A stretch of DNA of 64,000 nt from the NCBI GenBank assembly GCA_964385105.1, contig CAYLMU010000001.1, forward strand, positions 258,252 to 322,251, read 5' to 3'. Made by a program: the position numbers and the translations under genes. This document shows positions 17,057 through 63,252 of the stretch, piece after piece. The notes under the pieces are model-generated. The model ran no database searches and was not told where the DNA came from. It was given only the letters and a program-made list of their open reading frames with translations. Origin of the DNA: an uncultured Candidatus Saccharibacteria bacterium. GTDB taxonomy: Bacteria; Patescibacteriota; WWE3; UBA101185; UBA10185. Position 1 is the stretch's first letter. Each line of letters starts with the position of its first letter.

Positions 17057-17096
17057 ATGTGAAAAGTAGTAGGTTTTTTTGAAAGGAGGTGAGAAG

Positions 17097-17675: not shown

Positions 17676-17681
17676 TAAGAA

Positions 17682-17709: not shown

Positions 17710-17715
17710 AAATAT

Positions 17716-43340: not shown

Positions 43341-44477
43341 ATGAAAGTTGCAGTTGTAATACCAACTTATAATGAGGCAGAGAATATTAAGCAGTTAATT
43401 CCTGCGCTAAACGATGAGTTTAAAAAAATACCCCAACATGAATGTCATATTTTAATTGTGGACGGAAATTCTCCTGACGGTACCGGAAGTGTCGTAAATG
43501 AACTTAAAGAAGCATATTCCAATGTTCATCTGTTAACCGAAAAAGAGAAAAAAGGTCTTGGGGCAGCATATGTGTATGGGTTTAGGCACGCAATGGATGC
43601 ACTTAGTGCCGATATTATAGTAGAAATGGACGGGGATTTTCAGCACAACCCCGAAGATGTGGCTATTATGCTAAAAGAAATCGATAACGGGTACGATTAT
43701 GTTGTAGGTTCACGATTTATTGCTGGCGGGAGTATTCCCAAAGACTGGGAGTTATATAGAAAATTGTTAAGTTGGGGTGGAAATTTGTTTTCAAAAGTTG
43801 TGCTTGGTATGTGGTCTTTTAATGACTTCACTTCAGGTTTTAAAGCATCACGCGTAGAAGGATTTGCTAACAAACTTGATTTTGATAATATTTTGTCTCA
43901 AGGTTTTGCTTACAAAATTGACCTTTTGTACCGTATGCACAAACTTGGAGCAAAAATAAAAGAAGTTCCAATAACTTTCAGATCACGAGGCAGAGGAGCT
44001 TCAAAAATGGAAAAAAACAACTTTATTGACTCGTTGAAAGTGGTTTTGTTAATAAGAATGAGTGAAAACAAGAATTTTTTTAAATTTGTTATCGTTGGGT
44101 TTTTAGGACTATTTACCGATATTCTATTATCAAACGGTTTTAGACTTACCGACATGGCTCCAAACGTAGCGGCTTCTGTTGCTGCGCTTTGTGCAATGCT
44201 TGTTACATTTTTACTAAATAATTTCTGGTCATTTCGTGATAGGCCAATTAAAAGCAACAAAAAAAGAATCCAGAAGTTTGTTTTATATGTATTGTCGTCA
44301 TTTGTTCCTATAATTTTCAGATATTATTTTGTTGCATATATGATTAGTTTATTTGGTAATACGTTTATTATTTACAATCTTTCACTTTTTGTAAGTATTT
44401 CTTTTGGATTAATCTGGAATTTTACCGTTTACAGCAAAATAATCTGGAAAGAGCAGAATTTGAGTACTTTGGAATAA
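43341..44477 (+). CDS. GT2 polyprenyl-phosphate hexosyltransferase (DPM1/GtrB-like) fused to a C-terminal GtrA-like flippase domain
   Basis: VVIPTYNE...DGNSPDG...EMDGDFQH GT-A motifs; C-terminal 4-TM block typical of GtrA. Confidence 0.8.
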   Translation: MKVAVVIPTYNEAENIKQLIPALNDEFKKIPQHECHILIVDGNSPDGTGSVVNELKEAYSNVHLLTEKEKKGLGAAYVYGFRHAMDALSADIIVEMDGDFQHNPEDVAIMLKEIDNGYDYVVGSRFIAGGSIPKDWELYRKLLSWGGNLFSKVVLGMWSFNDFTSGFKASRVEGFANKLDFDNILSQGFAYKIDLLYRMHKLGAKIKEVPITFRSRGRGASKMEKNNFIDSLKVVLLIRMSENKNFFKFVIVGFLGLFTDILLSNGFRLTDMAPNVAASVAALCAMLVTFLLNNFWSFRDRPIKSNKKRIQKFVLYVLSSFVPIIFRYYFVAYMISLFGNTFIIYNLSLFVSISFGLIWNFTVYSKIIWKEQNLSTLE

Positions 44478-44503
44478 GTAAGTAGAATTAAGTTGGAGGA
44501 TTT

Positions 44504-45256
44504 ATGGAATATTCAATAGTTACGCCCGCATATAATGAAGCCGATAAAATAACTACTACGTTACGTCAGATGCTAGGTTTTATGAGGGAGTACAGTACGG
44601 AATTTGAGATCATTATTGTTGACGACGGTAGTAAAGACAACACAGCTCAAATAGTTGAAGAATACTCAAAAGAAAATCCTGAAGTACGAGTTATTCGCAA
44701 TAAACATAAAGGAAAAGGCCCGGCCGTTTGGAGAGGAATGATGGAAGCACAAGGAGATTTAATTTATATGGCTGACGCCGATCTTGCAACACCTATTTCA
44801 GAACTTAAAAAACTTTCAAACTGGATTAAAGACCATGACTTTGATATTGTAATCGCGTCACGAGAGGGTGTTGGGGCAGTACGGGTAAAAGAGCCTTTTT
44901 ACAGACATTTTGTGGGGCGTGTATTCAACTTTTTAGTACAAACGGTAGCACTTCCCGGAATTAAAGATTCGCAGTGCGGATTTAAACTTTTTAAAAAACA
45001 AGCAGCAAAAGATATTTTTGGTAAGCTTAAGATTTATGGAGACGACGCACCCGAGCGTGACCAGCCGTTTTTTGGTGCATTTGATGTGGAAGTATTGTAT
45101 TTGGCAAAAAAGCTTGGTTATAAGGTAAAAGAATTGCCGGTTACGTGGAATTTTGTAAAAACTCCAAGATTTAATTTTATTTACAATTCATTTAACATGG
45201 CAAAAGATGTATTAAAAGTGCGAATTAACGATATGCGTGGTGTTTATGAAGTGTAA
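44504..45256 (+). CDS. GT2 glycosyltransferase (soluble, DPM1/GtrB-like)
   Basis: IVTPAYNE, IIVDDGSKDNT, DADL(A) DxD-type motif. Confidence 0.8.
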   Translation: MEYSIVTPAYNEADKITTTLRQMLGFMREYSTEFEIIIVDDGSKDNTAQIVEEYSKENPEVRVIRNKHKGKGPAVWRGMMEAQGDLIYMADADLATPISELKKLSNWIKDHDFDIVIASREGVGAVRVKEPFYRHFVGRVFNFLVQTVALPGIKDSQCGFKLFKKQAAKDIFGKLKIYGDDAPERDQPFFGAFDVEVLYLAKKLGYKVKELPVTWNFVKTPRFNFIYNSFNMAKDVLKVRINDMRGVYEV

Positions 45257-45271
45257 TTTATATATTTTACA

Positions 45272-46465
45272 ATGAAAAAAATATTAATTTTTGTACCCGA
45301 ATTTCCTGTGCTAACTGAAACTTTCATAGAGCGTGATATATCAAAGCTAATAGAACTGGGCAATCTTGATATTAATGTTTTGTTTATTAAAAAGGGTAAC
45401 GGTCAAATGTCAAAAAATGTTGAAGACCGTGCTTATTTAATAAATCTTACATATTTTGAAGCTTTGCTGTCACTTGGCTACTTTATTACACACTTTAGCA
45501 GTGTAGTTCAATCTTTTAAATTATGTTTAAGTGATAATACAAAGCTATTGCCAAATAGAGTATTTTTATTTTTAAAATGCCTTGGGTATACCAGGGTTTT
45601 TAGTAAGTACCATCCTGATGAAATTCATGCTCACTTTCTTTCTGACCCTTCTACAATTGGAATGGTTGCATCGATAATGTTAAATATTCCATTTAGTGTG
45701 AGTGCACATGCCAAAGATGTGCTAGTTAATCCGACGCTTCCAAAACAAAAGGCACAAAGAGCAAAATTTATAACATTGTGTAATAAAAATGCCTATACAC
45801 GGGCAATTGAGCTAACACAAAATGAATCCAAAATACACTTAAATTATCATGGAGTTGACCCAAAAAAGCTTTTTTCGCAAAATTTTGAAAAAAAAGCTCA
45901 TGAACGACCGGTGATTTTTTTGGGAGGTACAAGGCTAGTTGAAAAAAAAGGTATTTTGTATGTTGTTGAAGCCTCAAAAACCTTAAAAGAGCGGGGAATA
46001 GCTCATCAAATGAGTGTTGTTGGTCCGGGGCCTCTTTTTGATGAAATAAAAGCCAAAATATCGGAATATGGGCTTGAAAATAACTTTTTTGTTCATGGAG
46101 ACGGTAAAGGTTTACCATTTGAAAAAGTGTCAGAATTGTATCTTGATGCAGACATATTTGTTTATGCCGGAATAAACACGTCCGAGGGTGATGCTGACGG
46201 CATACCAAATGTTTTAATCGAGGCAGCATTTGCAAAACTTCCAATAATTACAACAAATGCAGGCAGTATTTCAGAATTTGTTAATTCAAACAATGGAATC
46301 ATAATCCCGCAAAAAGATCCTTATGCCATAGCCGATTCTGTTGAAAGGTTAATATTTGATGAAGCTTTAAGAGTTGAACTAGGTAATAAAGTTTTTGAAA
46401 AGGCAAGTGCAATGTTTAACATAGAAAAAAATGTTAAAGAGTTAGAAGCACTTTTGTTAAAATAA
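45272..46465 (+). CDS. GT4-family glycosyltransferase (GT-B)
   Basis: C-terminal Glycos_transf_1 motifs (EGDADGIPNVLIEAAFAKLPIITT). Confidence 0.72.
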   Translation: MKKILIFVPEFPVLTETFIERDISKLIELGNLDINVLFIKKGNGQMSKNVEDRAYLINLTYFEALLSLGYFITHFSSVVQSFKLCLSDNTKLLPNRVFLFLKCLGYTRVFSKYHPDEIHAHFLSDPSTIGMVASIMLNIPFSVSAHAKDVLVNPTLPKQKAQRAKFITLCNKNAYTRAIELTQNESKIHLNYHGVDPKKLFSQNFEKKAHERPVIFLGGTRLVEKKGILYVVEASKTLKERGIAHQMSVVGPGPLFDEIKAKISEYGLENNFFVHGDGKGLPFEKVSELYLDADIFVYAGINTSEGDADGIPNVLIEAAFAKLPIITTNAGSISEFVNSNNGIIIPQKDPYAIADSVERLIFDEALRVELGNKVFEKASAMFNIEKNVKELEALLLK

Positions 46466-46468
46466 ATC

Positions 46469-47662
46469 ATGCGCATTGCTGTTTTTATTAAAAACACAAC
46501 ACATCATCAAAGTTATGGCGGTTTTGAAACCCAAAACAAAATTTTATGTGAAGGGCTTTCTGCGCGTGGTCATGAAGTTATAGTTTTTTCACCAAAAAAA
46601 GAACTCACAACAGAAAAAATAAGAGAGAACGGGGTAGAATACGTGTTTATTGACTGTATATTCAAAAAATTCAATCTTTTATATGAAAAAAGTGATAAAT
46701 CATGGCAGAATCGCTCTTATAAAACTTTTACGCAATTTCACAACCAAAGTAAATTTGATGTGATAATAAGCCAGAGTAGTTGGGGTTTGGGTGTAATTAA
46801 AAGAAAAGATGTTCATAAAGTTCCTGTTGTTTCAGTTTCACACGGGAGCAAAATAGGAGAATATAAAACCCGCATTCAAAGCGCAGTTTCAATAAAAGAC
46901 TACATTAGAATTGCAATTGATATTCCTCATGTGTTGTATGCTTTTTTTGTTACTCAAAGACGATTTCTTCATGGTTCCGACAATGTTGTAGCAGTGTCCA
47001 GTTCGGTAAAAAAACAAATTGTATCTGAAGCTTTTTTGCCGGAGCAAAAAGTAGTTGTAATTCATAACGGAATACATCCGCCATCAATAAACCTTAATTT
47101 GCAAAAAAACAGTAACAATGTGGAAATTTTGTATGTGGGAAGAATTCTTAGAGAAAAAGGTTTGTTTGCTTTGGTCGATGTTTTGGAAAAACTAATTAGT
47201 TTGGATTTAGAAGTAAATTTGAATTTGGTGGGAGAGGGCAATGACACTGAAGCACTTAAAAAATATGTGAGTGACAAAAGTCTTATTAAATATATTAATT
47301 TAGAGGGTAAATTGTCGTACACTGATGTTATAAACAGAATGGCACAGGCTGATATTTTTGTGTTACCTTCACTTAGGGTTGAAGGGTTTCCTATGACTAT
47401 TGTTGAAGCAATGTTTGCCGGATTGCCTGTTGTGGCATCCGATATAGGAGGAAATGCGGATGCGGTTGTTGATGGGGATACAGGATATTTGGTTGAGCCG
47501 GGCAATGTAGACTCACTTACAGAAAAACTTGAGCAATTAGTAAAAAACAAGGATGAAAGGTTGAGAATGGGTAAAAATGCACAAAATAAAGCTCAAAGTG
47601 AATTTACACAAGATATAATGATAGATAAGTATTTATCTGTTTTAACCGGAGTTATGAAATGA
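46469..47662 (+). CDS. GT4-family glycosyltransferase (GT-B)
   Basis: EGFPMTIVEAMFAGLPVVASDIGGNADAV canonical GT4 E-x7-E region. Confidence 0.8.
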   Translation: MRIAVFIKNTTHHQSYGGFETQNKILCEGLSARGHEVIVFSPKKELTTEKIRENGVEYVFIDCIFKKFNLLYEKSDKSWQNRSYKTFTQFHNQSKFDVIISQSSWGLGVIKRKDVHKVPVVSVSHGSKIGEYKTRIQSAVSIKDYIRIAIDIPHVLYAFFVTQRRFLHGSDNVVAVSSSVKKQIVSEAFLPEQKVVVIHNGIHPPSINLNLQKNSNNVEILYVGRILREKGLFALVDVLEKLISLDLEVNLNLVGEGNDTEALKKYVSDKSLIKYINLEGKLSYTDVINRMAQADIFVLPSLRVEGFPMTIVEAMFAGLPVVASDIGGNADAVVDGDTGYLVEPGNVDSLTEKLEQLVKNKDERLRMGKNAQNKAQSEFTQDIMIDKYLSVLTGVMK

Positions 47663-48855
47663 AAATAGTTAGAGTAATTTATGACTGGCCTCCACCATGG
47701 TATGGTCTGTCACCACATCCTTACGAGCTTACACTGGCTCAGGTAAAAGCAGGGCATGAGGTTGAAGTGTTTTGTGGCCGCTGGCCAAAAGCCGGCCCTG
47801 TGGAAACTTTTGACGGCGTAAATGTGCATGCTTATATGCGTGAGCCCTTTAAAGGATTAATTTTTTTTACTACAGCTTTGTTGGCATTTTTTGGTTTTCG
47901 TAAATGGAAGAAAAGAAACACCTATGATATTTTGCATGTACATGGGCATATGGGGATTTGGTTCTTTTTGCATAGGCATTTGTTAAAAAAATATAAAAAA
48001 AACTCACCGCAGCTTAAAATCCCGCTTGTTGCACATTTTCACAATACTATTGAGGGACGAAAACATGCACTACTGGAAAAAGGTGAAACTCCAAGCTTTA
48101 TATCAAGCAAACTGGAATGGCCATTGGCAAGATATTCAGATATGCTGGCTGTAAAAAATGCTGATGCGCTAATTTTTGCAGGAGAAGAAATAAAGGATGA
48201 AGCAATTAAATATTATGGAGCTGATGCAAATAAGTGTTACGTTGTTGAGTCGGGTGTAAATACTGATGAATTTCATTCTGTAGGGGCTGAAGAAAAAGGT
48301 AAAACGCGCAGTGAACTGGGTTTTGACCATACCGACATAGTAGTTTTAAATCACGGGTATATGGTTGAACGAAAAAACATACATTCATTGGTTGAAGCAT
48401 TTAAATACTTGCCCGAACAATACCGTTTGTTTTTGGTGGGTCCGTTTGATAGCGATGATTATAGATTTAAGATAAATACGTTAATTGAAGAAAATAAACT
48501 ACAAGAAAAAGTCACTATGACGGGGTATGTACCTTATCCCGAAACACCTATTGCTTTTCAGGCTTCTGATTTGTTTGTTTTACCGTCGTCGTTTGAAGGT
48601 GTACCTAAGGTGGTAATGCAAAGCCTTTCATGCGGTGTGCCGGCACTGGTATCAGGTTTTAGGCTAAATGAAGAAATTCAAGGTTTGAAATACCTTGATA
48701 CACAAGATCCAAAAGAAATTGCAGATCAAATAGTTAATACTTTTACCAATTATCCGGCTGTAGATGTTGCAAAAGTGCAAAGTCTTTACTCATGGAAAAC
48801 AAGAGCCAGATTAATAGATGAAATTTATGCATCTCTTAAACAAAATATATCTTAA
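47659..48855 (+). CDS. GT4-like glycosyltransferase (GT-B)
   Basis: FEGVPKVVMQSLSCGVPALVS C-terminal motif; start overlaps the previous stop. Confidence 0.68.
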   Translation: MKIVRVIYDWPPPWYGLSPHPYELTLAQVKAGHEVEVFCGRWPKAGPVETFDGVNVHAYMREPFKGLIFFTTALLAFFGFRKWKKRNTYDILHVHGHMGIWFFLHRHLLKKYKKNSPQLKIPLVAHFHNTIEGRKHALLEKGETPSFISSKLEWPLARYSDMLAVKNADALIFAGEEIKDEAIKYYGADANKCYVVESGVNTDEFHSVGAEEKGKTRSELGFDHTDIVVLNHGYMVERKNIHSLVEAFKYLPEQYRLFLVGPFDSDDYRFKINTLIEENKLQEKVTMTGYVPYPETPIAFQASDLFVLPSSFEGVPKVVMQSLSCGVPALVSGFRLNEEIQGLKYLDTQDPKEIADQIVNTFTNYPAVDVAKVQSLYSWKTRARLIDEIYASLKQNIS

Positions 48856-50401
48856 TTTAAAGCCTATTCACATTTTTGCGTTGTTTGTGTTTTTTCATTT
48901 GCTCTTGCTGAATTTCAATGCTGCTGAATGGGGTGATAGTTATAGGATTCTTCGAGCTACGGAGTTTATTAAAAACGATTTTACTTACCCTGAAGATGAA
49001 AAAAGACCACCATTATATTCGCTGGTTTTGGCATTTAGGCCTCAAAATATTGATGCAGTGCTGTGGGGGCGTCTTACAATGTTTGTTGTTAGTATTTTAG
49101 CCTTTGTGGTTTTTTATAGACTTTTGCAAAAAATTTTTCCGGACGACCTGAAAAAACAGCTACTTGGATTGCTTTTATTCACATTAAATCCCGTTTATCT
49201 ATATTGGTCTATAAGAATTATGTCGGATGTGTTTTTTTCGCTTATTATACTTACGGGTATTTATTATTACGAAAGTTATAAACACAAAATTAGGCCGAAA
49301 AACGCAGTTGTATTAGGTATTTTAGCGGGATTAGCAATTCTCACACGTTTTGAAGGTTTTATATTGTTTGGGGCTTTTGGTCTGGGATTGTTATATACAG
49401 AATCTTTCAATCTCAAAAAATTTACCCGACAAATAGCAAAAAATCTGAAAACTTTATTTTTTTACGTTATTTCAGCGTTTGCGGTACTTTTACCTTATTG
49501 GCTTTATAGAAACCCGCTTGATTCAACGTATTTTGAGGAACCTGCAAGCCGAACTTATGATTTAAATACAATTTTAATATTTCTAGGTTCGTTATTTTTT
49601 GTATTTGGATTTGTTTATGCATTTTATTTTATATTCCAAAATCGCCGGTCGGTTATTAAATTTTTATCAAGTCACATCGCAATATCTGCTTTTATTTTTG
49701 TTGAGCTTATATTAATACTTGCATGGCCTGCAGCAATTCCAAGGTTATTTGTACCTATAATACCTTTTTTAATAATTATTCTGGCTGATTCTATAATCGA
49801 ATTCTTTTTTAACAATACGCAAAATAAAATAAAAATACATGATGTAATACTGCTTGGGTTTTTATTGATAGCTTTTTTGGGAATTCAATATGTTTATAAG
49901 TTGCAATTTCTCATTTTAATCAAGCCGGTTCTGGGAGCTGTGGTAGTATTGTCAGTCTTTCAGGCTTTAGCTATATACAAAAAAAATTATAACCTCTTTT
50001 TGTTTTTGCTTATTCCCATTTTAACACTTTGGTCGTTTGCAACCATTTATATCCACAAAGATATTTTTGCCGTAATAAAAGAAGCAAATGTTTATGTGAT
50101 AAATAATCTTGAGGGAAGAGTGGGATATAATGACATAAGTAGCGTATCCGATTGGTATTTAAATCAGCGCAATAAAAACGATGACGTTGAAGGATTTTAC
50201 TATGACCTCACAAATCGTTCTAATCGAACGTATGAGAAGCTTATTGAAAACAATGTAGATTATATAACTGTCACCAATGAACACAATACAACAACAGAAC
50301 TTGACTTAGACGATTGGGAACACCTTGAAGTGATTAAAGAATTTAAAAAAGAAATTAACGGGAAAGAGTTTTGGACAAGAATTATTAAGTTTAACAAGTA
50401 G
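48818..50401 (+). CDS. GT-C-fold polytopic glycosyltransferase (ArnT/PMT_2-like)
   Basis: >10 TM; N-terminal periplasmic-loop motif GDSYRILRATEFIKN...DEKRPPLY resembling PMT_2/ArnT. Confidence 0.5.
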   Translation: MKFMHLLNKIYLNLKPIHIFALFVFFHLLLLNFNAAEWGDSYRILRATEFIKNDFTYPEDEKRPPLYSLVLAFRPQNIDAVLWGRLTMFVVSILAFVVFYRLLQKIFPDDLKKQLLGLLLFTLNPVYLYWSIRIMSDVFFSLIILTGIYYYESYKHKIRPKNAVVLGILAGLAILTRFEGFILFGAFGLGLLYTESFNLKKFTRQIAKNLKTLFFYVISAFAVLLPYWLYRNPLDSTYFEEPASRTYDLNTILIFLGSLFFVFGFVYAFYFIFQNRRSVIKFLSSHIAISAFIFVELILILAWPAAIPRLFVPIIPFLIIILADSIIEFFFNNTQNKIKIHDVILLGFLLIAFLGIQYVYKLQFLILIKPVLGAVVVLSVFQALAIYKKNYNLFLFLLIPILTLWSFATIYIHKDIFAVIKEANVYVINNLEGRVGYNDISSVSDWYLNQRNKNDDVEGFYYDLTNRSNRTYEKLIENNVDYITVTNEHNTTTELDLDDWEHLEVIKEFKKEINGKEFWTRIIKFNK

Positions 50402-50418
50402 GGTATAATTATTTAGAT

Positions 50419-51111
50419 ATGAAATTGTCCATTGTTATGCCGGTTTATAATGAAAAAGACACTTTGGTCAAAATACTTGATTTAATTCAAGATGTAAACT
50501 TAGGTGAAGTAGAAAAAGAAGTTGTTTTAGTTGATGATGCTTCAACTGACGGAACTACAGAAATATTAAAAAAGTTAAGCAACGAGAATCCGCAATATAA
50601 GGTTATTTTCAAACAAACAAACGAAGGAAAAGGTTTTGCACTTAGAGACGGGTTTAAGGTATCAACTGGTAATTATGTAATAGTTCAGGATGCAGATTTG
50701 GAATATGATCCCAATGACTATGTAAAATTGCTAAATGCGTTAAATACACAAAATGTTGATGTTGTTTATGGCTCACGTTTTTCGGGAAATTATAAGGATA
50801 TGTCGAGTTTGCACTATGTAGGTAATAAATTTCTGACTTTTGCTACAAATATATTGTATGGCGTTAAACTCACAGATATGGAAACTTGTTATAAGTTAAT
50901 TCCGGGGGATTTTATTAGAAATATGGAAATAAAAGCAGCAAGATTTAATTTTGAGCCCGAGATTACGGCAAAAATTTTAAAATCGGGAATGAATATTGGC
51001 GAGGTTTCCATAAACTATCACGGACGTTCACATGCCGAAGGTAAAAAAATTACCTGGAGAGACGGAATTTCGGCATTATGGACACTTATAAAATTTAGAT
51101 TCACAAACTAA
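50419..51111 (+). CDS. GT2 polyprenyl-phosphate sugar synthase (DPM1/GtrB-like, 230 aa)
   Basis: IVMPVYNE, LVDDASTDGT, QDADLEYDP. Confidence 0.8.
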   Translation: MKLSIVMPVYNEKDTLVKILDLIQDVNLGEVEKEVVLVDDASTDGTTEILKKLSNENPQYKVIFKQTNEGKGFALRDGFKVSTGNYVIVQDADLEYDPNDYVKLLNALNTQNVDVVYGSRFSGNYKDMSSLHYVGNKFLTFATNILYGVKLTDMETCYKLIPGDFIRNMEIKAARFNFEPEITAKILKSGMNIGEVSINYHGRSHAEGKKITWRDGISALWTLIKFRFTN

Positions 51112-55737: not shown

Positions 55738-57289
55738 AAATAAATATTTACCGGTAGGTCTTTTTATTTTGCTTTTTTTTACTACCCGATTACCGTCATT
55801 GGGTGTTGATGCAATAAATCCCGATGGAGTTAATTGGCACTACAGGTCACAACAATTTATAGTCGGTTTAAAATCAGGTGATTTTGAAAAAACTCATCAG
55901 CATTACCATCCCGGTGTTACGTTAATGTGGGTAGCCGGTATACCAATAGAATTAATAAAACAATTAAATCCTGAAGATGCAGTTTATACCCATCTCAACT
56001 TTATGAAATTTCACACTGCTGCTAAATTAGCACTTGTTTTGGTGCAGTTTATCGTTTCTATATTGATTATATTTGTTTTATACAAAGTTTTGTTGCTTAA
56101 AAACAGGCAATTTCCCTTGCTTATGTCAGTATTCACTGTTGGTCTGTTTTCTCTGGAGCCATTCTTTCTTGGGAACTCAAGGTTATTACACTTGGATGTT
56201 TTGTTGGCGTTACTATTGTTTTTAGGCTTGCTACTGTTTTACTTGTACATAGGCACTTACAAATATACATATGGTGTTTTTGCAGCAATTATTTTGAGTC
56301 TTGCTTTTTTGACTAAAAGTATTGCAATAGGCGCACTTTCTTTTTCATTAGCAATAGGAGGAATGTTATTTTTTAAAGAATTAGGCTTTAAAGGTACTCT
56401 CAAGTTGTTACTCCCATTTTTGGTAATTTATATTGTTACTTTATTTTTGTTCTTTCCTGCTATGTGGACGGCTCCGGTAGACACAATTTATAACATTTTT
56501 GACGAAGCTGAAAGGGTTGGAATAAGAAAAGGTCATGAACAAATCGTTTTTGGCGAGTATACACGTGATGCAGGTCCTTTATTTTATATTCTTGTGTTAT
56601 TACTTAAGACAACACCTTTTACATTAATCGGATTAGTGGCCTTTTTGGTGTTTAAGTTTAAAAGTGTTTTATTGAATATGAACGCCTCGATTGAAAAAAT
56701 AAAAATTTCGCCCGAATTGTTTCTGGGAATTTTTTACTTTGGTTATCTGCTTGTAATGATGTATCCGTCAAAAAAGCTTGATCGATACATGATTCCTCTG
56801 TATCCTTTTTTTGGGTTTATAGCAGTGTACGGTTACTATGAGCTTTATAATAAACTTAAAAGGGTTCATTTTGTCATATTAACTTTAGTTTTGAGTATGC
56901 TTTTTGTGGTATGTCCGGTATTAAAGCTACATCCTTATCCATTTACATATTCAACTCCATTAGTAGGAAGTGCTGACTCCGCACACAAAATCTTAGCACA
57001 AAAACCTTTTGGTATAGGTATACCGGCGCTAAGGGAATTTATTTTTGAAAAATACGGAGAATATCCTACGCTTGGTTTTATTGATACAAAACCTATGAGC
57101 GCTATTTACATGAATTCTCGTTTATTTGACATACGCGTGGATGGAACAAGCAATTACGATATTATTGTTTTGGCAGTTGATGAAGAAATGCCCCAAGAAA
57201 TCCTTGAATCCGAAAACAAGTTTGTTCATGACAGTTCATACTACATAAACGGATTGGAATACTGGAGAATTTATGTTAAAGAGAAGTAA
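55700..57289 (+). CDS. GT-C-fold membrane glycosyltransferase, paralog A (PMT/ArnT-like)
   Basis: Shares YHPGVTLMW, SLEPF(F/Y)LG..R..HL(D/E) and PSKKLDRY(M/L)(I/L)P blocks with the ORF at 58543-60177. Confidence 0.5.
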   Translation: MADLFMHLTKILKNKYLPVGLFILLFFTTRLPSLGVDAINPDGVNWHYRSQQFIVGLKSGDFEKTHQHYHPGVTLMWVAGIPIELIKQLNPEDAVYTHLNFMKFHTAAKLALVLVQFIVSILIIFVLYKVLLLKNRQFPLLMSVFTVGLFSLEPFFLGNSRLLHLDVLLALLLFLGLLLFYLYIGTYKYTYGVFAAIILSLAFLTKSIAIGALSFSLAIGGMLFFKELGFKGTLKLLLPFLVIYIVTLFLFFPAMWTAPVDTIYNIFDEAERVGIRKGHEQIVFGEYTRDAGPLFYILVLLLKTTPFTLIGLVAFLVFKFKSVLLNMNASIEKIKISPELFLGIFYFGYLLVMMYPSKKLDRYMIPLYPFFGFIAVYGYYELYNKLKRVHFVILTLVLSMLFVVCPVLKLHPYPFTYSTPLVGSADSAHKILAQKPFGIGIPALREFIFEKYGEYPTLGFIDTKPMSAIYMNSRLFDIRVDGTSNYDIIVLAVDEEMPQEILESENKFVHDSSYYINGLEYWRIYVKEK

Positions 57290-58565
57290 AAATATTGTTG
57301 TTGAGAATAAGCTTTTGTTTGGCATATTTGCTTTTACGCTCTTTTTAAGACTGCTTTCTATAGAACATTCATTCCCCAATATTGTGCATCCCGATGAACC
57401 TACAATTGTGAGGTCGGCACTTGGGATTAGATTTTTTCCAAATCCTAAGCATTTTGACTGGCCACATTTGTATATCTATTTAAATTACTTTGTATACATG
57501 CTTTTTGCCTGGGTACGTAATATTTTAGCAATGTTGGGGCTTAAGAGTACTTTTTCAAATATTTTTCCGCTTTTGTGGAACGATGACCTTATTTTTTATT
57601 TAATCAGCAGAATATTTTCATCATTTTTGGGAGCATTAACGGTTTTTCCGGTTTATCTGGCTGCATTAAATTTATTTAAAAATAAGAAAGTTGCCATTTT
57701 TTCGGCTTTAGTTATGGCTGTGTTACCATACCACATCTGGCATTCCCAGTACTCGTTGGCAGATGTTCCAATGACATTTTTTTTGGCTATGGCAATGTAC
57801 TTTTGCACGCATATATTTAAATCAAATAAAACTTTTTATTATATATTGGCAGGTTTATTTGTAGGTTTTGCCGCGTCTACAAAGTATAACGGTGGATTAT
57901 CGGCTTTAATTGTGCTAACAGCACATTTATTGCGCGTTTACAGCACCAAAGAAAGATTATTTAGCATTGAAAATTTAAAAAATTTGTTTTTGTCAGGTAC
58001 TTTTTCACTAATCGGATTTGTTATGGGAACTCCGTATGCTTTACTTGATTTTTCAACTTTTATACGAACAGATGGCCCAAAAGGAGCTTTGTGGCAGTTC
58101 ACAAACGTAGGTAAAGTTTCACTTGATTTACAGGTGATTAAATTTGTAAGTTTATTTTTTACCAAACTTCCGGACGATTTTGGTTTTATGCCTCTTATTG
58201 CATATCTTACGGTTGTACTTTCACTGCCCTTCAAAATAGTAAGAAATTTTATTTTTGTACATGTGGAGCCTTTATTATTGCTGATAATTCCTTCGTTGAT
58301 TTTTTTCTTTTATATTGCAGGATTTGAAAAAAGCAGATCTCATTATTATTTTATTACCTATCCTTTAGTGGCTGTTGTTGCTGGATATTTGGTACATAAA
58401 TTATTTGATTATGTTGGTACCTCATTTAATAAAAAGGTACAAATGTTAATGTTATTGCTCTTTTTCATTTTTCCGCTCATAGTAATAATACAAAATACAA
58501 TTTCCAGATTTGAAAGTTACAATATTGTAACGGAAGAAACTTATGAAACTAAAGAAGATTATTGA
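57273..58565 (+). CDS. GT-C-fold membrane glycosyltransferase (ArnT/PMT_2-like)
   Basis: HPDEPTIVRSALGI first-loop motif resembling the DE-containing loop of ArnT/PMT; >10 TM. Confidence 0.55.
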   Translation: MLKRSKNIVVENKLLFGIFAFTLFLRLLSIEHSFPNIVHPDEPTIVRSALGIRFFPNPKHFDWPHLYIYLNYFVYMLFAWVRNILAMLGLKSTFSNIFPLLWNDDLIFYLISRIFSSFLGALTVFPVYLAALNLFKNKKVAIFSALVMAVLPYHIWHSQYSLADVPMTFFLAMAMYFCTHIFKSNKTFYYILAGLFVGFAASTKYNGGLSALIVLTAHLLRVYSTKERLFSIENLKNLFLSGTFSLIGFVMGTPYALLDFSTFIRTDGPKGALWQFTNVGKVSLDLQVIKFVSLFFTKLPDDFGFMPLIAYLTVVLSLPFKIVRNFIFVHVEPLLLLIIPSLIFFFYIAGFEKSRSHYYFITYPLVAVVAGYLVHKLFDYVGTSFNKKVQMLMLLLFFIFPLIVIIQNTISRFESYNIVTEETYETKEDY

Positions 58566-60177
58566 TTTTAAATGGGAATTATCTTTTTTAATATTTTTTG
58601 TGGCTTCACGATTACCTATGCTTGGCCATGATATATTCAACACTGATGTATGGAAATGGAAAAGCCGAATTTTTGATTTTGGTACCGGAATATTCACATT
58701 AAACTTTGAAAAAACAATTCAAAGATATCATCCAGGTGTAACTTTAATGTGGATTGGTAGTTTTGCTGTTAAAGTTTATAACTTTGGGTATGAGCTAATA
58801 TTTAAAATTCCTCCGCCTGATAACTCAATACATACTATTTTTCAATTACACTTTATGCAAAAGTTTTTTATAGTTTTAGCTATCGGATTTACTTTATTTT
58901 TTGTGTTTTATGTTGTTAAACAACTGTTTTCGCTAAAGTATGCTTTGTTAACACTGCTAATGATGTCGCTTGAGCCTTTTTATGTCGGATTGACACGTGT
59001 AGTGCATCTAGAGGGGTTAATGTCAACATTTATGATTGCGTCGTTTGTTGCTTTTTATATGTATATAAGAAATTCCCATATGAGAAAATACATAATTCTC
59101 TCTGCATTCTTTGGTGCTTTAGCAATACTCACCAAAACGTCAGCACTTTTTTTGTTACCGATGATGGCTTTAATACTAGTGTGTGAGCGAATACCAGATT
59201 TTTCCCGCGGATTAAACTTGAAAAATTCAATAAATTATATATTAGTTAACTTTCTCACTTGGTTAGTATTTGTACTTATATTTTTTATAGCTTTGTGGCC
59301 GGCCATGTGGACAATGCCCCAACAAGCCCTAAGCACACTTTATTCAGGTATATCAGAAACCGGAGTAGAAGAAGGGCATATTCAATTATATTTTTCAAAC
59401 TTAGTTGAAGATCCCGGACTCACCTTTTATCCCGTTGTTTTGTTTTTGCGCTCATCAGTTATGTTGATTATTGGGGTCATTGGATTTTTCTTGATTTATA
59501 AAAAATTAAATGCAAATGAGCGTAAATTTGCGTCATATGCTTTGCTGTTTGCACTTTTTTATGGAATTGAAATGACAATCCCATCAAAAAAGCTGGATCG
59601 ATACCTATTGCCAAGTATTATAAGTTTATGGTTTACAGCAGGATTTTTTTATATACATCTATTAAAAAAGATTGAACCATTTGTTGTTGGTTTAATTATT
59701 TTATTATTGCTTCCGGTTTTCACATTGATTGTTTTGCATTCAGACTATTTGGCCTATTACAACCCGCTTATTGGTGGTACGGCAAAAGGTATTTATATCA
59801 TTGAGCCAAAGTGGATGATTGGCCAACATGAGATTGTGGATTACTTAAATGAGCTAAAAACACAAAACGCATACGCTAGCTTTGAAGACGGTGAAAGTAT
59901 TGATGAATACGTGAATACTGTTTTTATTCAGGATAAGCTTGTGGTAGGATTCCAGGAAAAATATTACACTCAAATATGGCCATTTGTTAATGAAATCGGA
60001 GCCAGAGCAACCATTACAGATTTAACAGGACAGGCAATTAATACAAAGTACTTTATATATCCTGTTTGGGATGATACTTCGCACGAAGAAGATCGCTTTG
60101 AGCTTGTTAAAGTTGGCGAAATTGAATCAAAAGGCATAATACTTTACCATGTGTACGAAAGGATAATAGTTTTATGA
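58543..60177 (+). CDS. GT-C-fold membrane glycosyltransferase, paralog B
   Basis: Paralogous to 55700-57289 (conserved blocks listed there). Confidence 0.5.
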   Translation: MKLKKIIDFKWELSFLIFFVASRLPMLGHDIFNTDVWKWKSRIFDFGTGIFTLNFEKTIQRYHPGVTLMWIGSFAVKVYNFGYELIFKIPPPDNSIHTIFQLHFMQKFFIVLAIGFTLFFVFYVVKQLFSLKYALLTLLMMSLEPFYVGLTRVVHLEGLMSTFMIASFVAFYMYIRNSHMRKYIILSAFFGALAILTKTSALFLLPMMALILVCERIPDFSRGLNLKNSINYILVNFLTWLVFVLIFFIALWPAMWTMPQQALSTLYSGISETGVEEGHIQLYFSNLVEDPGLTFYPVVLFLRSSVMLIIGVIGFFLIYKKLNANERKFASYALLFALFYGIEMTIPSKKLDRYLLPSIISLWFTAGFFYIHLLKKIEPFVVGLIILLLLPVFTLIVLHSDYLAYYNPLIGGTAKGIYIIEPKWMIGQHEIVDYLNELKTQNAYASFEDGESIDEYVNTVFIQDKLVVGFQEKYYTQIWPFVNEIGARATITDLTGQAINTKYFIYPVWDDTSHEEDRFELVKVGEIESKGIILYHVYERIIVL

Positions 60178-61466
60178 ACGGGGCAAAAATCACATCTATT
60201 CTAAAAGGCGATTTCATTTTAAAAGGTACTGCTTTGATGAGCATTGGATTTTTTGTTGCCAGCATATTTAATTATTTATTGCAGGTTGTATTGGGGCGAG
60301 TACTAACTATTCCGGAGTTTGGAGTTTTCAATGCATTATTGTCTTTATCATATTTGTTTATCGTTCCGGCTAATGTATTGTCGTTGTCTCTGGTGAAAGT
60401 AACTTCTGAATTAAAGGCAAAAAATTCGTTTAACGAACTCACTCACTTATATAAGTCTTTAGTAAAATGGGCTATTCTACTTGGATCTATACTTGCTTTA
60501 TTTATTTACTTAAGTAGCCCGTGGATATCGTCGTATTTGAGAATTGAAAACCGAAACATTTTTGCTACATATTCATTATTTCTTGGAGCCACTTTTCTGA
60601 CCATAATTCCTGCAGCATTTTTGCAAGGACTTCTTAGATTTAAAGGTTTTGCGTTTTTTGCAATTTCAAGTTCAGTAATAAGGTTAATATTACCGTTATT
60701 GTTTATATACCTGGGGTATAGAGTGGCAGGAGTTTTTGGAGGGCTTTTTATTTTTGCACTATTTAGTTATGTACTTGCACACCTGATTCTTAAAAAAAAT
60801 CTGATTGTTAAAGAAAAGATTGAGGTGAGAAATTTGTTGAGGCGTATACTAACGTTGAGTATTCCTGTGTTGATAATAAGAGTCAGTTTGGATTTAATGG
60901 GTAATGTTGATTTAATTTTGGTAAAACATTTTTTCACTGCTCATGATGCCGGGCTTTATGCGGGAGTAGTTACAATTTGCAAAGTCTTTTTGTTTGGTGC
61001 GGGAATGTTGGGAATGGTTATGTATCCAATAATTTCTGAGATTCACGCAAAAGGTGAAAGTATAATTCCTGCAGTAAAAAAATTTATTATAATACAACTT
61101 GTTTTAGTAACAGGGGGATTAATAACGTTTGTCTTTTTTCCGGATTTGATTTCGGGCGTAATGTTTGGGCAGAAATATATTGAATCAGCAGCATATGTTC
61201 CTCTTTTCGCGTTGTTTGTAGGTGTCTACATACTTATTAATTTTTTTACAATGTTGTGTATTGCAGTTGGAAAGGTGAATGTATATGCTATTTTATCAAT
61301 AGGGGTTATATTGCAGTTTATTGGAATTCAAATGTATCACACTAACCTGTATAACATTATAAGTGTAAACTTAGTTGTTTCAATATGCGTTTTGGTGGTT
61401 TTACTAGCCTATACTGCTAAAATATTAAATCATGAAAAAAGTATCCATAATAATTCCCGCCTATAA
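60174..61466 (+). CDS. Wzx-like MOP-family flippase (second copy)
   Basis: 430 aa, 12-14 TM, PST-family-like N-terminus. Confidence 0.5.
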   Translation: MNGAKITSILKGDFILKGTALMSIGFFVASIFNYLLQVVLGRVLTIPEFGVFNALLSLSYLFIVPANVLSLSLVKVTSELKAKNSFNELTHLYKSLVKWAILLGSILALFIYLSSPWISSYLRIENRNIFATYSLFLGATFLTIIPAAFLQGLLRFKGFAFFAISSSVIRLILPLLFIYLGYRVAGVFGGLFIFALFSYVLAHLILKKNLIVKEKIEVRNLLRRILTLSIPVLIIRVSLDLMGNVDLILVKHFFTAHDAGLYAGVVTICKVFLFGAGMLGMVMYPIISEIHAKGESIIPAVKKFIIIQLVLVTGGLITFVFFPDLISGVMFGQKYIESAAYVPLFALFVGVYILINFFTMLCIAVGKVNVYAILSIGVILQFIGIQMYHTNLYNIISVNLVVSICVLVVLLAYTAKILNHEKSIHNNSRL

Positions 61467-63252
61467 ACAAGAAAAAACGATAAAGCAGGATATTGACAAT
61501 ATTTGCAATACAATGAAACAAACCCGTTTGGATTTTGAAATTATTGTTGTTGACGATGGATCCACCGACAATACTTTTGATGAAGCGAAAAAAAGCCAGT
61601 GTGAAAATGTAAAAGTTGTGCGATACGAAGAAAATGAAGGAAAAGGTTATGCGGTAAGATATGGAATGGCACGTTCAAAAGGTGATTATATCGCATTTAT
61701 TGATGCAGGTATGGATATTGACTCAAATGGAATATCCATGCTTCTTGAACATATGGAGTGGTATGATGCTGATGTAATTGTGGGGAGTAAAAGACATCCT
61801 GCATCTCAGGTAAACTACCCTTTTACCCGAAGAATTTATAGCTGGGGCTATTACACATTGGTTAGATTATTGTTTGGGTTGAAAATTAGAGACACTCAAA
61901 CAGGACTAAAGGTGTTTAAAAGAGAAGTTCTGGAGCAAGTTTTGCCACGGTTGGTAATAAAAAGATTCGCTTTTGATATTGAAATTTTGGCGGTAGCACG
62001 TTATGTGGGATTTAAAAAGATATATGAGGCACCTGTACGCATCAGCTGGGACTTTAATAACACCAACTTTAAAAAATTTTTGATTTTTGAACCATTTATA
62101 AGAGGAATGATTGTAGATACTTTTGGTGTGTTTTACAGGATGCGTATTTTAAAGTATTACCATTCCGATAATAGCGGAAATTGGTATTTAAGCAAAAAAA
62201 TGACTCCGGGTGTTGTTGACGAGGCGTCACCTGTTACATACAAGTTTAGTGTAATTATCCCTGTCAGATCCTTTAATGACTTCTTAACAGAAAATATAAA
62301 AGCGTTGAAATCACAAACTTACAAAAATTTTGAAGTAATTATTATTTTAGACAATGAAGAGTCTTTTGACTTTAAAGGTGATAAAAGATTTAAGGTTATA
62401 GCTGCAGGTGAAATTGGACCTGGTGATAAAAGAAATATTGGAGCGAAAGCATCAACCGGGGATATCTTAGTTTTTTTGGACGATGACGCTTATCCTACTA
62501 TAACTTGGCTTGAATATGCAGATGATGTATTTAATGAAAATGATATTTATGCTTTGGGGGCGCCTGGTGTCACTCCTCCAAATGCCGGAGTTCGGGAGAG
62601 GTGTTCAGGTAGAGTCCTTGAGTCTATGCTTGCAAGTTATAAAGAAGTTTATAGACATATACCATCCTCAAGCCGATTAATAAGCGATTATCCTACGGTA
62701 AATCTTTTCGTAAAAAAAGATGCATTTTTTAAAGTAGGTGGATTTAATGAAAATTTCTGGCCGGGAGAAGACACAAAATTGTGTTTGGACTTAGTTAAAG
62801 AATTTGGAAAACCCTTTTTATACGACCCAAAGCCTGTAGTTTATCATCATCGAAGAAAGCTCTTTTTACCGCACTTAAAACAAATTTCCCGCTACGGGAA
62901 GCACCGGGGTTACTTTGCAAAAAAATTTCCCGAGACCTCCCGTAAGCTCTCATATTTTATTCCCTCCTTATTTGTCTTGGGATTATTTGCAGGACCTATA
63001 ATTGTGTTGTTTTTTAGAGATTTATTATGGATATATTTAATCGCCGTTTATATTTATATTTTCTTTTTGGTTTATGAAACGATAAAAACTATACTATACG
63101 AATTATCTTTTGTAAGTGGTTTATGTGTGGGAGTGGGAATTTTTTTGACTCACGTTGTTTATGGTATAAATTTCATGATTGGACTTTTAAAAAAGCCTGA
63201 CTTAAAATTAAAAAGATTTGACTCCGCTTCCGGAAATTATATAGAAGGATAA
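61432..63252 (+). CDS. Tandem GT2-GT2 two-domain glycosyltransferase with C-terminal TM helices
   Basis: Two GT-A modules (SIIIPAYKQE...VVDDGSTDNT and FSVIIPVRSF...LDDDAY) plus a C-terminal hydrophobic region. Confidence 0.8.
   Translation: MKKVSIIIPAYKQEKTIKQDIDNICNTMKQTRLDFEIIVVDDGSTDNTFDEAKKSQCENVKVVRYEENEGKGYAVRYGMARSKGDYIAFIDAGMDIDSNGISMLLEHMEWYDADVIVGSKRHPASQVNYPFTRRIYSWGYYTLVRLLFGLKIRDTQTGLKVFKREVLEQVLPRLVIKRFAFDIEILAVARYVGFKKIYEAPVRISWDFNNTNFKKFLIFEPFIRGMIVDTFGVFYRMRILKYYHSDNSGNWYLSKKMTPGVVDEASPVTYKFSVIIPVRSFNDFLTENIKALKSQTYKNFEVIIILDNEESFDFKGDKRFKVIAAGEIGPGDKRNIGAKASTGDILVFLDDDAYPTITWLEYADDVFNENDIYALGAPGVTPPNAGVRERCSGRVLESMLASYKEVYRHIPSSSRLISDYPTVNLFVKKDAFFKVGGFNENFWPGEDTKLCLDLVKEFGKPFLYDPKPVVYHHRRKLFLPHLKQISRYGKHRGYFAKKFPETSRKLSYFIPSLFVLGLFAGPIIVLFFRDLLWIYLIAVYIYIFFLVYETIKTILYELSFVSGLCVGVGIFLTHVVYGINFMIGLLKKPDLKLKRFDSASGNYIEG

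Follow-up and report, generated by a model that had tools for sequence, protein, structure and literature searches.

Why would a reduced-genome bacterium of the Candidate Phyla Radiation (CPR) keep a 19.9-kb run of glycosyltransferase and flippase-like genes, equivalent to ~2.3% of a ~0.88-Mb genome of candidate division WWE3, and what do these genes make? We addressed this question for a locus of 15 genes, here designated g1 to g15, at positions 43341-63252 of a 64-kb DNA segment (referred to below as the window, meaning the whole stretch that was analyzed). The evidence from gene order, protein families, structure models, and catalytic motifs leads us to propose, with moderate confidence, that the locus is a vertically inherited, class-wide WWE3 operon whose products work together as a single, integrated assembly line, which makes a surface glycoconjugate on lipid carriers in two phases.

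Organization of the locus and its conservation in WWE3 genomes

The window's open reading frame (ORF) listing contains exactly 15 ORFs on the + strand between positions 43341 and 63252. Neighboring genes are spaced by -38 to +26 nt and overlap at 9 of the 14 junctions, in agreement with the co-directional, tightly packed arrangement described in the first-pass annotation. Scans for promoter and terminator consensus sites over positions 41500-64000 returned sites no commoner than in shuffled sequences and gave no operon boundaries. The Pfam scan covered every gene of the locus, its flanking genes, the larger of the ORFs at 16-43 kb, and five genes sampled from the ribosomal cluster; all locus genes except g11 passed a Pfam gathering score. 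By family, the locus comprises four glycosyltransferase (GT) family 2 genes (g1, g2, g7, and g15), three GT4 genes (g3-g5), five genes for polytopic GT-C enzymes (g6, g8, g11, g12, and g13), two Wzx-like genes (g9 and g14), and one MprF-N-like gene (g10). The inventory of the first-pass annotation was essentially right, and its three GT4, two Wzx, and one MprF-N-like genes are those given by Pfam. However, its listed parts added up to 16-17 for 15 genes, the number of GT2 genes that it implied (five) exceeded the four found, and its "five or six" GT-C genes are five exactly, not six.

For the comparative analysis, one genome per GTDB species was scanned with a g8 profile, which yielded 80 loci, and their ORFs were assigned to the window proteins by BLASTP. 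The set includes the complete RAAC2_WWE3_1 chromosome CP006914.1 (878,109 bp; locus L024), against which the genomic share of the locus was estimated, and the curated complete RIFOXYC1 genome. One gene order recurs, consisting of a CAP-domain protein (up1), a small protein with two transmembrane (TM) helices (up2), and g1 to g15, followed in nine loci by the same ferredoxin. Its occurrence in ~80 species-level genomes is not a matter of chance. The ten core genes (g1-g5, g8, g9, and g11-g13) are colinear in 38 of the 40 species-level loci that span up2 to g14/g15, RAAC2 included, with orthologue identities of 35-70%.

The homologues of g8, g11, and g6 come nearly all from candidate division WWE3 or from metagenome-assembled genomes labeled "Patescibacteria group." On this evidence the host, which had been described as CPR-like, is a candidate division WWE3 (Katanobacteria; CPR/Patescibacteria) bacterium. 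Identical proteins were found on an NCBI contig of 468,751 bp and in the Logan assembly SRR9016296. The loci L005, L006, L018, L020, and ~30 others are titled "uncultured Candidatus Saccharibacteria bacterium" and carry a colinear operon of the WWE3 type at 45-63% identity to WWE3 proteins; these titles look like generic or wrong taxonomic labels.

The locus had also been called an island of repeated modules, and neither term survived the analysis. Its GC content (0.31-0.35) shows no break from that of the rest of the window (0.32-0.37). We rejected horizontal acquisition because the composition is continuous with that of the surroundings, housekeeping genes flank the locus, and synteny is class-wide; the locus is vertically conserved across the class. 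The repeats proved to be ancient paralogues, since g11/g13 are 29% identical, g2 and the N-terminal domain of g15 are 32% identical, and g2/g7 reach the within-locus maximum of 33%. Repeats at the DNA level are confined to short motifs shared by g11/g13 and by g7/g15, and recent duplication was rejected on these two grounds.

The loci vary in several informative ways. A gene of the UDP-glucose/GDP-mannose dehydrogenase family (~456 aa) lies between g2 and g3 in 50 loci (for example, at 2591-3970 in L002 and 2333-3697 in L004), and a 33-aa remnant of it was found in L003/L014. No homologue was detected in the 64-kb window by tblastn, and the gap between g2 and g3 is 15 nt here (45257-45271), which implies either a glycan variant that lacks uronic acid or a gene copy elsewhere in the genome. 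The g6 and g7 genes occur together in 61 loci, are jointly missing from 7, and are separated in 1, which has g7 without g6; this paired distribution suggests a donor-synthase/transferase pair. The g10 gene is found in 52 of 68 loci and remains next to g11 where unrelated genes have been inserted after g9 (L004/L015, L047, L069, and L077), so that g10-g13 behave as a sub-unit.

The g9/g10 junction is a hotspot of change (13655-14446 in L003/L014; 13613-17318 in L004/L015; also in L047, L069, and L077). In some genomes, a 263-aa methyltransferase-like gene replaces g10, and in others genes for an NTPase, a prolyl-tRNA synthetase, and a radical-SAM protein lie between g9 and g10. The distant loci L082 and L083, in which g8 is 28-33% identical, have a partial core with the order g6-g7-g8 ... 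g9-(g10)-g12/13, and L082 carries two copies of the DUF2079 gene. The core may therefore predate WWE3.

GT2 glycosyltransferases

The g1 gene (43341..44477, +) is predicted to encode a polyprenyl-phosphate hexose synthase of the dolichol-phosphate mannose synthase (DPMS) type. The protein combines a GT2 domain (95.9 bits in Pfam) with a built-in four-TM GtrA/DPMS_TM domain (GtrA_DPMS_TM, 53.8 bits), its four TM segments lying at residues 246-359. Residues 1-359 align with the Pyrococcus furiosus dolichol-phosphate mannose synthase 5mlz (E = 5.6e-41), which scored 144 bits among the PDB sequences versus 46 bits for the next match, and the D97xD99 motif is kept in at least 93% of 53 sequences. 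The earlier description of g1 as a GT2 enzyme fused to GtrA holds for both domains, but the architecture is that of a full-length archaeal DPMS rather than a new GtrB+GtrA fusion.

Two other GT2 proteins have no TM segment. The g2 gene (44504..45256, +) encodes a soluble ArnC/PgfS/DPMS-like enzyme, a candidate polyprenyl-phosphate-sugar synthase (Pfam GT2, 120.4 bits) with a conserved D91xD93 motif. Its best NCBIfam matches, ArnC (74 bits; cut-off 529) and PgfS (69 bits), were both far under the equivalog cut-offs; among PDB sequences it matched DPMS (72.6 bits), ArnC (63.8 bits), and GtrB (52.1 bits) versus 58.6 bits for chondroitin synthase. The g7 gene (50419..51111, +) encodes a soluble AglJ/DPMS-like enzyme (Pfam GT2, 112.5 bits) with a conserved D91-A-D93 motif (71 sequences) and is the candidate synthase of the lipid-linked donor for g6. 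NCBIfam gave AglJ at 111.7 bits in a nearly full-length alignment and a halophile dolichol-phosphate-hexose transferase at 62.8 bits, and the PDB matches were DPMS (60.6 bits) and GtrB (48.1 bits) versus 45.5 bits for 3bcv. The GtrB entry matched by both g2 and g7 is sll0501.

The last gene of the operon, g15 (61432..63252, +), encodes two fused GT2 enzymes (164.4 bits over two stretches) followed by three C-terminal TM helices at residues 509-586. The N-terminal domain is a paralogue of g2, and its PDB matches are ambiguous, with DPMS 5mlz at 63.7 bits (E = 1.2e-16) versus chondroitin synthase at 59.1 bits (E = 2.8e-15); the C-terminal domain is EpsD/MftF/AglG-like. In 35 loci, the counterpart of g15 consists of two separate adjacent genes, and the fused form is limited to this genome, L037, and L070. 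The minority state is therefore the one with a gene fusion or a lost stop codon.

Over the four genes, the GT2 domain scored 96-164 bits in Pfam, and the DxD motifs of g1, g2, and g7 are kept in at least 93% of orthologues (53-71 sequences). AglJ was the best NCBIfam match of both g1 and g7, and PgfS was among the top matches of g1, g2, and g7. The nearest characterized relatives of the single-domain GT2 proteins appear to be DPMS, ArnC, GtrB, AglJ, and PgfS, the margin over other GT2 enzymes being modest for g2 and g7. These similarities point to a family resemblance to the polyprenyl-phosphate GT2 enzymes that holds without a specific enzyme identity.

GT-C glycosyltransferases

Family profiles of g6 and g8 found no relatives among PDB sequences, and the fold of these two proteins, which had the weakest sequence evidence, was therefore tested by structure modeling; g11-g13 were placed by sequence and profile comparisons. 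The g6 gene (48818..50401, +; PMT_2, 29.3 bits) encodes an ArnT-like GT-C glycosyltransferase. In a Foldseek search with its AlphaFold2 model (pLDDT 91.1, pTM 0.90), the best PDB match was ArnT 5f15 (E = 2.2e-8, TM 0.62), and ranks 1-47 were all occupied by GT-C enzymes or GT-C-fold proteins. These included STT3, ALG9/12/3/6, Pmt1/2/4, EmbA/B/C, AftA/B/D, PglB, glycosylphosphatidylinositol (GPI) mannosyltransferase I, and, at rank 39, the GPI-transamidase subunit PIG-U; PimE followed at rank 50.

The g8 gene (51111..53252, +) encodes a DUF2079 protein that is modeled as a GT-C glycosyltransferase with a C-terminal extracytoplasmic beta-sandwich resembling glycan-binding modules. Its profile had no relationship to that of g6 at the sequence level. 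The ALG9, ALG12, ALG3, and STT3/AglB/PglB enzymes were among the top structural matches of g6 and g8, and Emb, Aft, and PimE enzymes also appeared among the matches of these two proteins. Identity to the solved enzymes is 9-14%, a likeness at the fold level only, and no WWDYG-type oligosaccharyltransferase motif was identified in g8. The literature searched contained no paper treating DUF2079 (PF09852) functionally and nothing relevant on LPG_synthase_TM. Within the reach of this study, the g8 model would be the first to place DUF2079 structurally among the GT-C enzymes and to give it a domain resembling glycan-binding modules.

The remaining three GT-C genes are adjacent. The g11 gene (55700..57289, +) encodes a PMT_2/GT39-like protein that scored just under the PMT_2 gathering threshold (23.4 versus 26.1 bits); many of its orthologues match PMT_2 or PMT, and their NCBI names place them in the GT39 or ArnT family. 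Its profile aligned with that of g6 by hhalign (96.9%, E = 1.4e-10), and the protein is a paralogue of the PMT_2-like g13 (58543..60177, +; PMT_2, 28.7 bits; PMT sub-threshold at 18.1 bits), with which it aligns over 490 aa (BLASTP E = 7.7e-47). Orthologues of g6 and g13 are likewise named GT39 by NCBI. The g12 gene (57273..58565, +) belongs to the PMT family (PF02366, 58.3 bits versus a gathering threshold of 22.7; PMT_2, 41 bits) and matches yeast Pmt1 6p25_A by sequence (E = 1.3e-7). No PMT_4TMC or MIR domain was matched in g12 by Pfam at E-values up to 0.01. At 430 aa, compared to an orthologue median of 505 aa, the protein is ~65 residues short at the C-terminus, and its N-terminal catalytic part is intact.

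All five GT-C proteins have a conserved acidic residue just after TM1, as located from the models and hydropathy: an invariant D40 in g6 (plus D60/E61), an invariant D45 in g8 (with D40 in at least 90% of sequences), an invariant D42 in g11, D41-E42 in g12, which corresponds to the loop-1 "DE" motif of PMT enzymes (at least 93% of 62 sequences), and D35 in g13 (at least 93% of sequences). The fold and the co-location with DPMS/ArnC-like synthases suggest that these enzymes use a polyprenyl-phosphate-linked donor at the extracytoplasmic face of the membrane.

GT4 glycosyltransferases and flippase-like proteins

Three consecutive genes are predicted to encode cytoplasmic GT4 enzymes. The g3 protein (45272..46465, +; Glycos_transf_1, 86.9 bits; no TM), of the retaining GT-B type, was EpsE/WcaL/TuaC-like in NCBIfam, under the cut-offs, and its PDB matches were generic GT4 enzymes. 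The g4 protein (46469..47662, +) also lacks TM segments and matched Glycos_transf_1 at 142.7 bits and Glyco_transf_4 at 70.4 bits. The g5 protein (47659..48855, +; Glyco_transf_4, 84.5 bits; Glycos_transf_1, 80.7 bits) had generic PDB matches and weakly resembles diacylglycerol and glycolipid-anchor glycosyltransferases, the NCBIfam scores for MSMEG_0565 (74 bits), IagA/BgsA (65 bits), and Dgs (41 bits) all being far under the cut-offs. A role of g5 in making a diacylglycerol anchor is a weak lead from these similarities.

The g9 gene (53249..54802, +) encodes a putative Wzx-like flippase of lipid-linked glycans, of the MOP superfamily (Polysacc_synt_3, 70.4 bits; Polysacc_synt, 57.3 bits) with at least 10 TM segments and was present in every locus spanning its position. 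A second putative Wzx-like flippase with ~12 TM segments is encoded by g14 (60174..61466, +; Polysacc_synt, 65.1 bits; Polysacc_synt_3, 44.8 bits), which was found in 41 of the 44 loci spanning its position; all four scores are above the gathering scores. The g10 gene (54802..55737, +) encodes a 311-aa stand-alone membrane protein of the MprF-N "flippase-like" type with 7 TM segments (LPG_synthase_TM, 137.9 bits; TIGR00374 flippase-like domain, 72.3 bits with a cut-off of 43.2). It consists of the TM domain alone, with no LPG_synthase_C fusion.

Proposed two-phase pathway and competing interpretations

Family and fold membership, catalytic motifs, topology estimates, operon packing, and co-inheritance are the directly supported part of our interpretation. 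They also bear out the main proposals of the first-pass annotation: the polytopic proteins are GT-C enzymes by the g6 and g8 models, the Pmt1 match of g12, and the profile and BLAST links of g11/g13; a candidate catalytic acid lies in loop 1 of all five; the nearest characterized relatives of the single-domain GT2 proteins appear to be polyprenyl-phosphate sugar synthases; and none of the locus genes is a peptidoglycan or lipopolysaccharide (LPS) housekeeping gene. The three-component logic of synthase, flippase, and GT-C transferase was also supported. However, several such systems had been thought to be concatenated here, and the near-invariant colinearity favors a single integrated pathway.

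In the pathway that we propose, the first phase would take place at the cytoplasmic face of the membrane, where, judging from family membership, the GT4 enzymes g3-g5 together with g15 would use nucleotide sugars to assemble a lipid-linked oligosaccharide or glycolipid primer. For most relatives, these precursors would include a uronic acid supplied by the UDP-sugar dehydrogenase encoded within the operon. In parallel, g1, g2, g7, and possibly the N-terminal domain of g15 would load single sugars onto polyprenyl phosphate. The g9, g14, and g10 proteins and the GtrA-like four-TM domain of g1 could then flip the products to the outer leaflet. In the second phase, at the outer face, g6, g8, g11, g12, and g13 would move sugars from polyprenyl-phosphate-sugars to the growing glycan. 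The g6+g7 pair, the dehydrogenase (Ugd), and g10 would represent optional side branches of a single pathway. We prefer the reading in which the product is a lipid- or wall-anchored heteropolysaccharide, similar to a lipoglycan or a secondary cell-wall polymer, assembled in the style of mycobacterial lipomannan/lipoarabinomannan (LM/LAM) and arabinogalactan. What favors it is the presence of GT4 enzymes, additional GT2 enzymes, and a pair of Wzx-like proteins, together with the uronic-acid supply found in relatives and the domain of g8 that resembles glycan-binding modules.

Several results weigh against this interpretation. No protein of the locus reached an NCBIfam equivalog cut-off, the best GT2 scores being 74-112 bits versus cut-offs of 325-529, and hence no donor sugar or acceptor can be named. 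The putative synthases g2 and g7 are without a membrane segment, and the N-terminal domain of g15 is just marginally nearer to DPMS than to chondroitin synthase. The acceptor specificity of the GT4 enzymes was sought in PDB and NCBIfam and returned generic GT4 matches alone, far under the cut-offs, and the flippase roles of g9, g10, and g14 draw on family analogy. Among the ORFs of the window scanned with Pfam, there was no family match to an initiating phosphoglycosyl transferase, Wzy, a Wzz/chain-length regulator, LCP, or a WaaL-type ligase, and the initiating, Wzy, and chain-length families were also missing from the gene tables of L002-L004; as a result, the start of the primer and the destination of the product cannot be read from the sequence. 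Finally, the PMT-family membership of g12 fits protein O-glycosylation equally well.

The last point leads to the main alternative, namely that the locus O-glycosylates proteins in the manner of the Ppm1/PMT or streptococcal Pgf systems. The GT-C enzymes would then transfer sugars from polyprenyl-phosphate-sugars directly to Ser/Thr residues of secreted proteins, for which the neighboring CAP-domain protein, an S-layer protein, type IV pilins, and sortase substrates would be candidates. We give both this scheme and its targets a small but real chance. It would account for the PMT score, Pmt1 match, and retained loop-1 DE of g12, for the GT39 names of g6, g11, and g13 orthologues, for PgfS and AglJ being among the best GT2 matches, and for the conserved upstream CAP membrane protein with its Pro/Thr/acidic linker, and a glycosylated S-layer was suggested by Kantor 2013 (PMC3812714). 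In contrast, simple PMT systems consist of one synthase and one GT-C enzyme, whereas the WWE3 locus has three GT4 enzymes, a pair of Wzx-like proteins, and a tandem GT2 protein, and relatives also have a UDP-sugar dehydrogenase; together, these components indicate an oligo- or polysaccharide built on a lipid. The scheme also has to contend with the missing PMT_4TMC and MIR domains in g12 and with the glycan-binding-module-like C-terminal domain of g8. The CAP protein was rejected as an obvious Ser/Thr-rich substrate, the Ser/Thr/Pro enrichment of its linker being weak (0.33 versus a background of 0.26).

A second possibility, which we regard as doubtful, is that independent synthase/flippase/GT-C decoration systems are merely adjacent, each modifying a different acceptor made elsewhere in the genome. 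Such systems could be made up from the five GT-C enzymes, the four flippase-like elements, and the synthase-like GT2 domains, of which there are three to four; g6 and g7 are lost jointly without loss of the rest, and g10 is dispensable in 16 of 68 loci. However, accessory systems of the Gtr type are typically mobile and patchy, and the strict co-inheritance of the ten core genes is as expected of a jointly selected pathway and favors one pathway with optional branches. In addition, a model of decoration alone leaves the GT4 enzymes and g15 without a function.

For g10 alone, we considered that it might be the flippase half of a split MprF, which would move aminoacyl-phosphatidylglycerol rather than glycolipids, with the LPG_synthase_C protein at 38624-39532 (-) as its partner. 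The protein is indeed a full-length LPG_synthase_TM domain without a synthase domain, and the soluble LPG_synthase_C ORF lies 15 kb upstream. Nevertheless, this was judged quite unlikely: in 52 of 68 genomes g10 resides within the operon and moves with g11-g13, none of 84 loci had an LPG_synthase_C homologue at a distance of up to 10 kb, and the NCBIfam match of g10 is a generic "flippase-like domain" family.

The least probable interpretation, to which we attach very little weight, is that the locus makes a capsule or exopolysaccharide by the conventional Wzx/Wzy-dependent route, with a polymerase or ligase among the polytopic proteins in place of transferases that depend on polyprenyl-phosphate-sugars: it agrees with the two Wzx-family genes, the resemblance of the GT4 and GT2 enzymes to those for exopolysaccharide, colanic acid, and teichuronic acid (EpsE, WcaL, TuaC, TuaG, and EpsD), and the Ugd-family dehydrogenase of relatives, as in the tua operon, but the scanned ORFs of the window gave no family match to Wzy_C/O-antigen ligase, Wzz/PCP, or phosphoglycosyl transferase, the polytopic proteins match GT-C enzymes of the ArnT, PMT, ALG, and Emb/Aft types rather than Wzy or WaaL, and the three to four DPMS/ArnC-like synthases are left unexplained.

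Comparison with known glycosylation systems

The two-phase scheme has its closest analogue in the assembly of mycobacterial and corynebacterial LM-LAM and arabinogalactan. There, cytoplasmic GT4 enzymes (PimA/PimB'/MgtA) make a lipid-linked primer out of nucleotide sugars, which is flipped, and GT-C enzymes (PimE, MptA-C, EmbA-C, and AftA-D) extend it from polyprenyl-phosphate-sugars made by a DPM1-like GT2 enzyme (Ppm1). The WWE3 operon follows the same two-phase logic, the Emb and AftD enzymes carry an extra extracytoplasmic beta-sandwich as g8 does, and the glucuronic acid-diacylglycerol anchor of corynebacterial LM-B can be compared with the uronic-acid supply in WWE3 relatives. However, there is no orthology between the systems (9-14% identity), and the WWE3 locus has no GT87/DUF2029, Emb, or Aft Pfam matches. 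The mycobacterial genes are scattered, whereas those of WWE3 form one operon; the WWE3 flippases are Wzx-like and MprF-N-like, and the host is a reduced-genome CPR bacterium.

The same division of labor is found in the eukaryotic and archaeal dolichol-linked oligosaccharide pathway (ALG GT4 enzymes, RFT1, DPM1/ALG5, ALG3/9/12, and STT3/AglB), to which the locus is further linked by the ALG and STT3/AglB/PglB structural matches of g6/g8 and by the AglJ matches of g1 and g7. The likeness is at the fold level only; no WWDYG-type motif was identified in g8, and no sign of en-bloc transfer was seen. The P. furiosus DPMS 5mlz, a type III enzyme, has the same order of a GT2 domain and a four-TM GtrA-like domain as full-length g1, but g1 is bacterial, its carrier is probably of the undecaprenyl type, and it scored below every NCBIfam equivalog cut-off.

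In the Gtr system of O-antigen glucosylation (GtrA/GtrB/GtrC) and its Gram-positive analogues CsbB/GtcA/YfhO and GacI/J/K/L, as proposed here, a GT2 enzyme makes a polyprenyl-phosphate-sugar, a small or Wzx-type flippase moves it, and a GT-C enzyme transfers the sugar outside. GacK is a proposed precedent of a Wzx-type flippase for a polyprenyl-phosphate-monosaccharide. The GtrB matches of g2 and g7 and the GtrA-family domain of g1 add to this likeness. Unlike these systems, the WWE3 locus has no separate GtrA gene, no GtrB-type two-TM tail, and no YfhO or GtrC family match, and it carries cytoplasmic GT4/GT2 enzymes that Gtr decoration systems lack. Gtr genes are usually prophage-borne, include a serotype-specific GtrC, and act on the O-antigen of LPS, whereas the WWE3 genes lie among housekeeping genes and are vertically conserved, neither prophage-borne nor patchy, and CPR bacteria have no LPS (Kantor 2013). 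In its mode of operation the locus resembles the Gtr systems, to which it does not belong.

Other systems share single components with the locus. The actinobacterial Ppm1/PMT and streptococcal Pgf systems resemble it in the PMT-family g12 with its loop-1 DE and in the PgfS matches of g1, g2, and g7, but these are two- to four-gene systems, compared to far more components here, and g12 is without detected PMT_4TMC/MIR domains. The ArnC/ArnT (Ugd) pathway for lipid A aminoarabinose differs in that ArnA, ArnB, ArnD, and ArnE/F were not found and the lineage is without lipid A. In MprF, LPG_synthase_TM and LPG_synthase_C are fused, in contrast to the TM-only g10, and the separate LPG_synthase_C of this genome is not syntenic with the locus elsewhere.

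Genomic context of the operon

Directly upstream of the operon, up1 (42085..43062, +) encodes a membrane-anchored CAP/SCP-domain protein (Pfam CAP, 84.5 bits) with an N-terminal TM segment, an extracytoplasmic CAP domain, an acidic Pro/Thr-rich linker, and two C-terminal TM segments. It precedes the operon in most loci extending that far, a synteny that makes up1 a candidate member of the pathway. The up2 gene (43064..43336, +) encodes a 90-aa protein with an estimated two TM helices and a weak DUF5656 match. It always lies directly 5' of g1, with an orthologue in 51 loci (median length 86 aa), and, more speculatively, could possibly be a membrane partner of the soluble GT2 enzymes. The up2 protein recalls the DPM2/DPM3 anchors of the TM-less eukaryotic DPM1, a likeness to which its sequence lends no support.

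The remaining window is occupied by housekeeping genes, including a ribosomal-protein/SecY/Adk/Map/RpoA cluster and genes for RadC, a Clp ATPase, a peptide-chain release factor (PCRF/RF-1 domains), SecD/SecF, RecJ, class II (D/K/N) and class I (E/Q) aminoacyl-tRNA synthetases, an S11 D-Ala-D-Ala carboxypeptidase, RecA/RecX, RNase Y, and YmdB. No tRNA genes and no Rfam matches at gathering thresholds were found in the whole 64-kb window, despite its ribosomal-protein cluster. Six ORFs (91-389 aa) at 17079-18174, 23025-23606, 29798-30967 (-), and 39587-40686 were without a Pfam match at the thresholds used. The stand-alone LPG_synthase_C/DUF2156-type protein at 38624-39532 (-), which is soluble (no TM), adjoins a PAS histidine kinase at 37441-38607 (-).

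Implications for the WWE3 cell envelope

CPR/Patescibacteria account for a large share of bacterial diversity, and their cell envelopes are essentially uncharacterized chemically. The complete RAAC2 genome of WWE3 was reported to have no LPS genes and an incomplete identifiable peptidoglycan pathway, and glycosyltransferases were described as abundant, "particularly" in WWE3, with polysaccharides, glycoproteins, or a glycosylated S-layer suggested as products (Kantor 2013, PMC3812714); the locus itself was not described there. In a soil Saccharibacterium, glycolipids resembling phosphatidylinositol mannosides were proposed from annotation (Starr 2018, PMC6031116), and glycosylation is not covered in a 2026 review of the phylum, which reports S-layers for some species but does not contain the word stem "glycosyl." The general idea of WWE3 surface glycosylation is thus not new, and the enzyme families are known. 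No description of the locus was found in the literature searched, in line with the earlier view that a heavily glycosylated surface structure is uncharacterized in this lineage, and within the reach of our searches the new elements are the definition of a class-wide operon, the description of its modules, and the assignment of DUF2079 to the GT-C enzymes. The operon appears to combine extracytoplasmic glycosylation of the polyprenyl-phosphate-sugar/GT-C type with a cytoplasmic, lipid-linked build.

The colinearity in 38 of 40 fully covered species-level genomes indicates that the product is probably important for WWE3 cells. A more far-reaching version of the proposal, which we put forward only tentatively and consider improbable as it stands, is that the main, lineage-defining polymer of the WWE3 envelope is a product of this operon, made through a bacterial counterpart of the ALG/dolichol or arabinogalactan-type two-phase pathway, with g8 performing a key extracytoplasmic step such as chain extension or transfer to the wall or a protein. 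If so, this polymer would partly replace the classical wall structurally, given the incomplete peptidoglycan pathway reported for RAAC2.

The operon also offers clonable targets, namely four DPMS-like domains and five GT-C enzymes, the DUF2079 GT-C among them, with possible uses in in vitro reconstitution, in the development of lectin or antibody probes, and as a metagenomic marker of WWE3. In these episymbionts, attachment to the host and recognition by phages are likely to depend on the surface glycan, and the locus, made of known families, provides a well-defined, testable handle on the chemistry of CPR envelopes.

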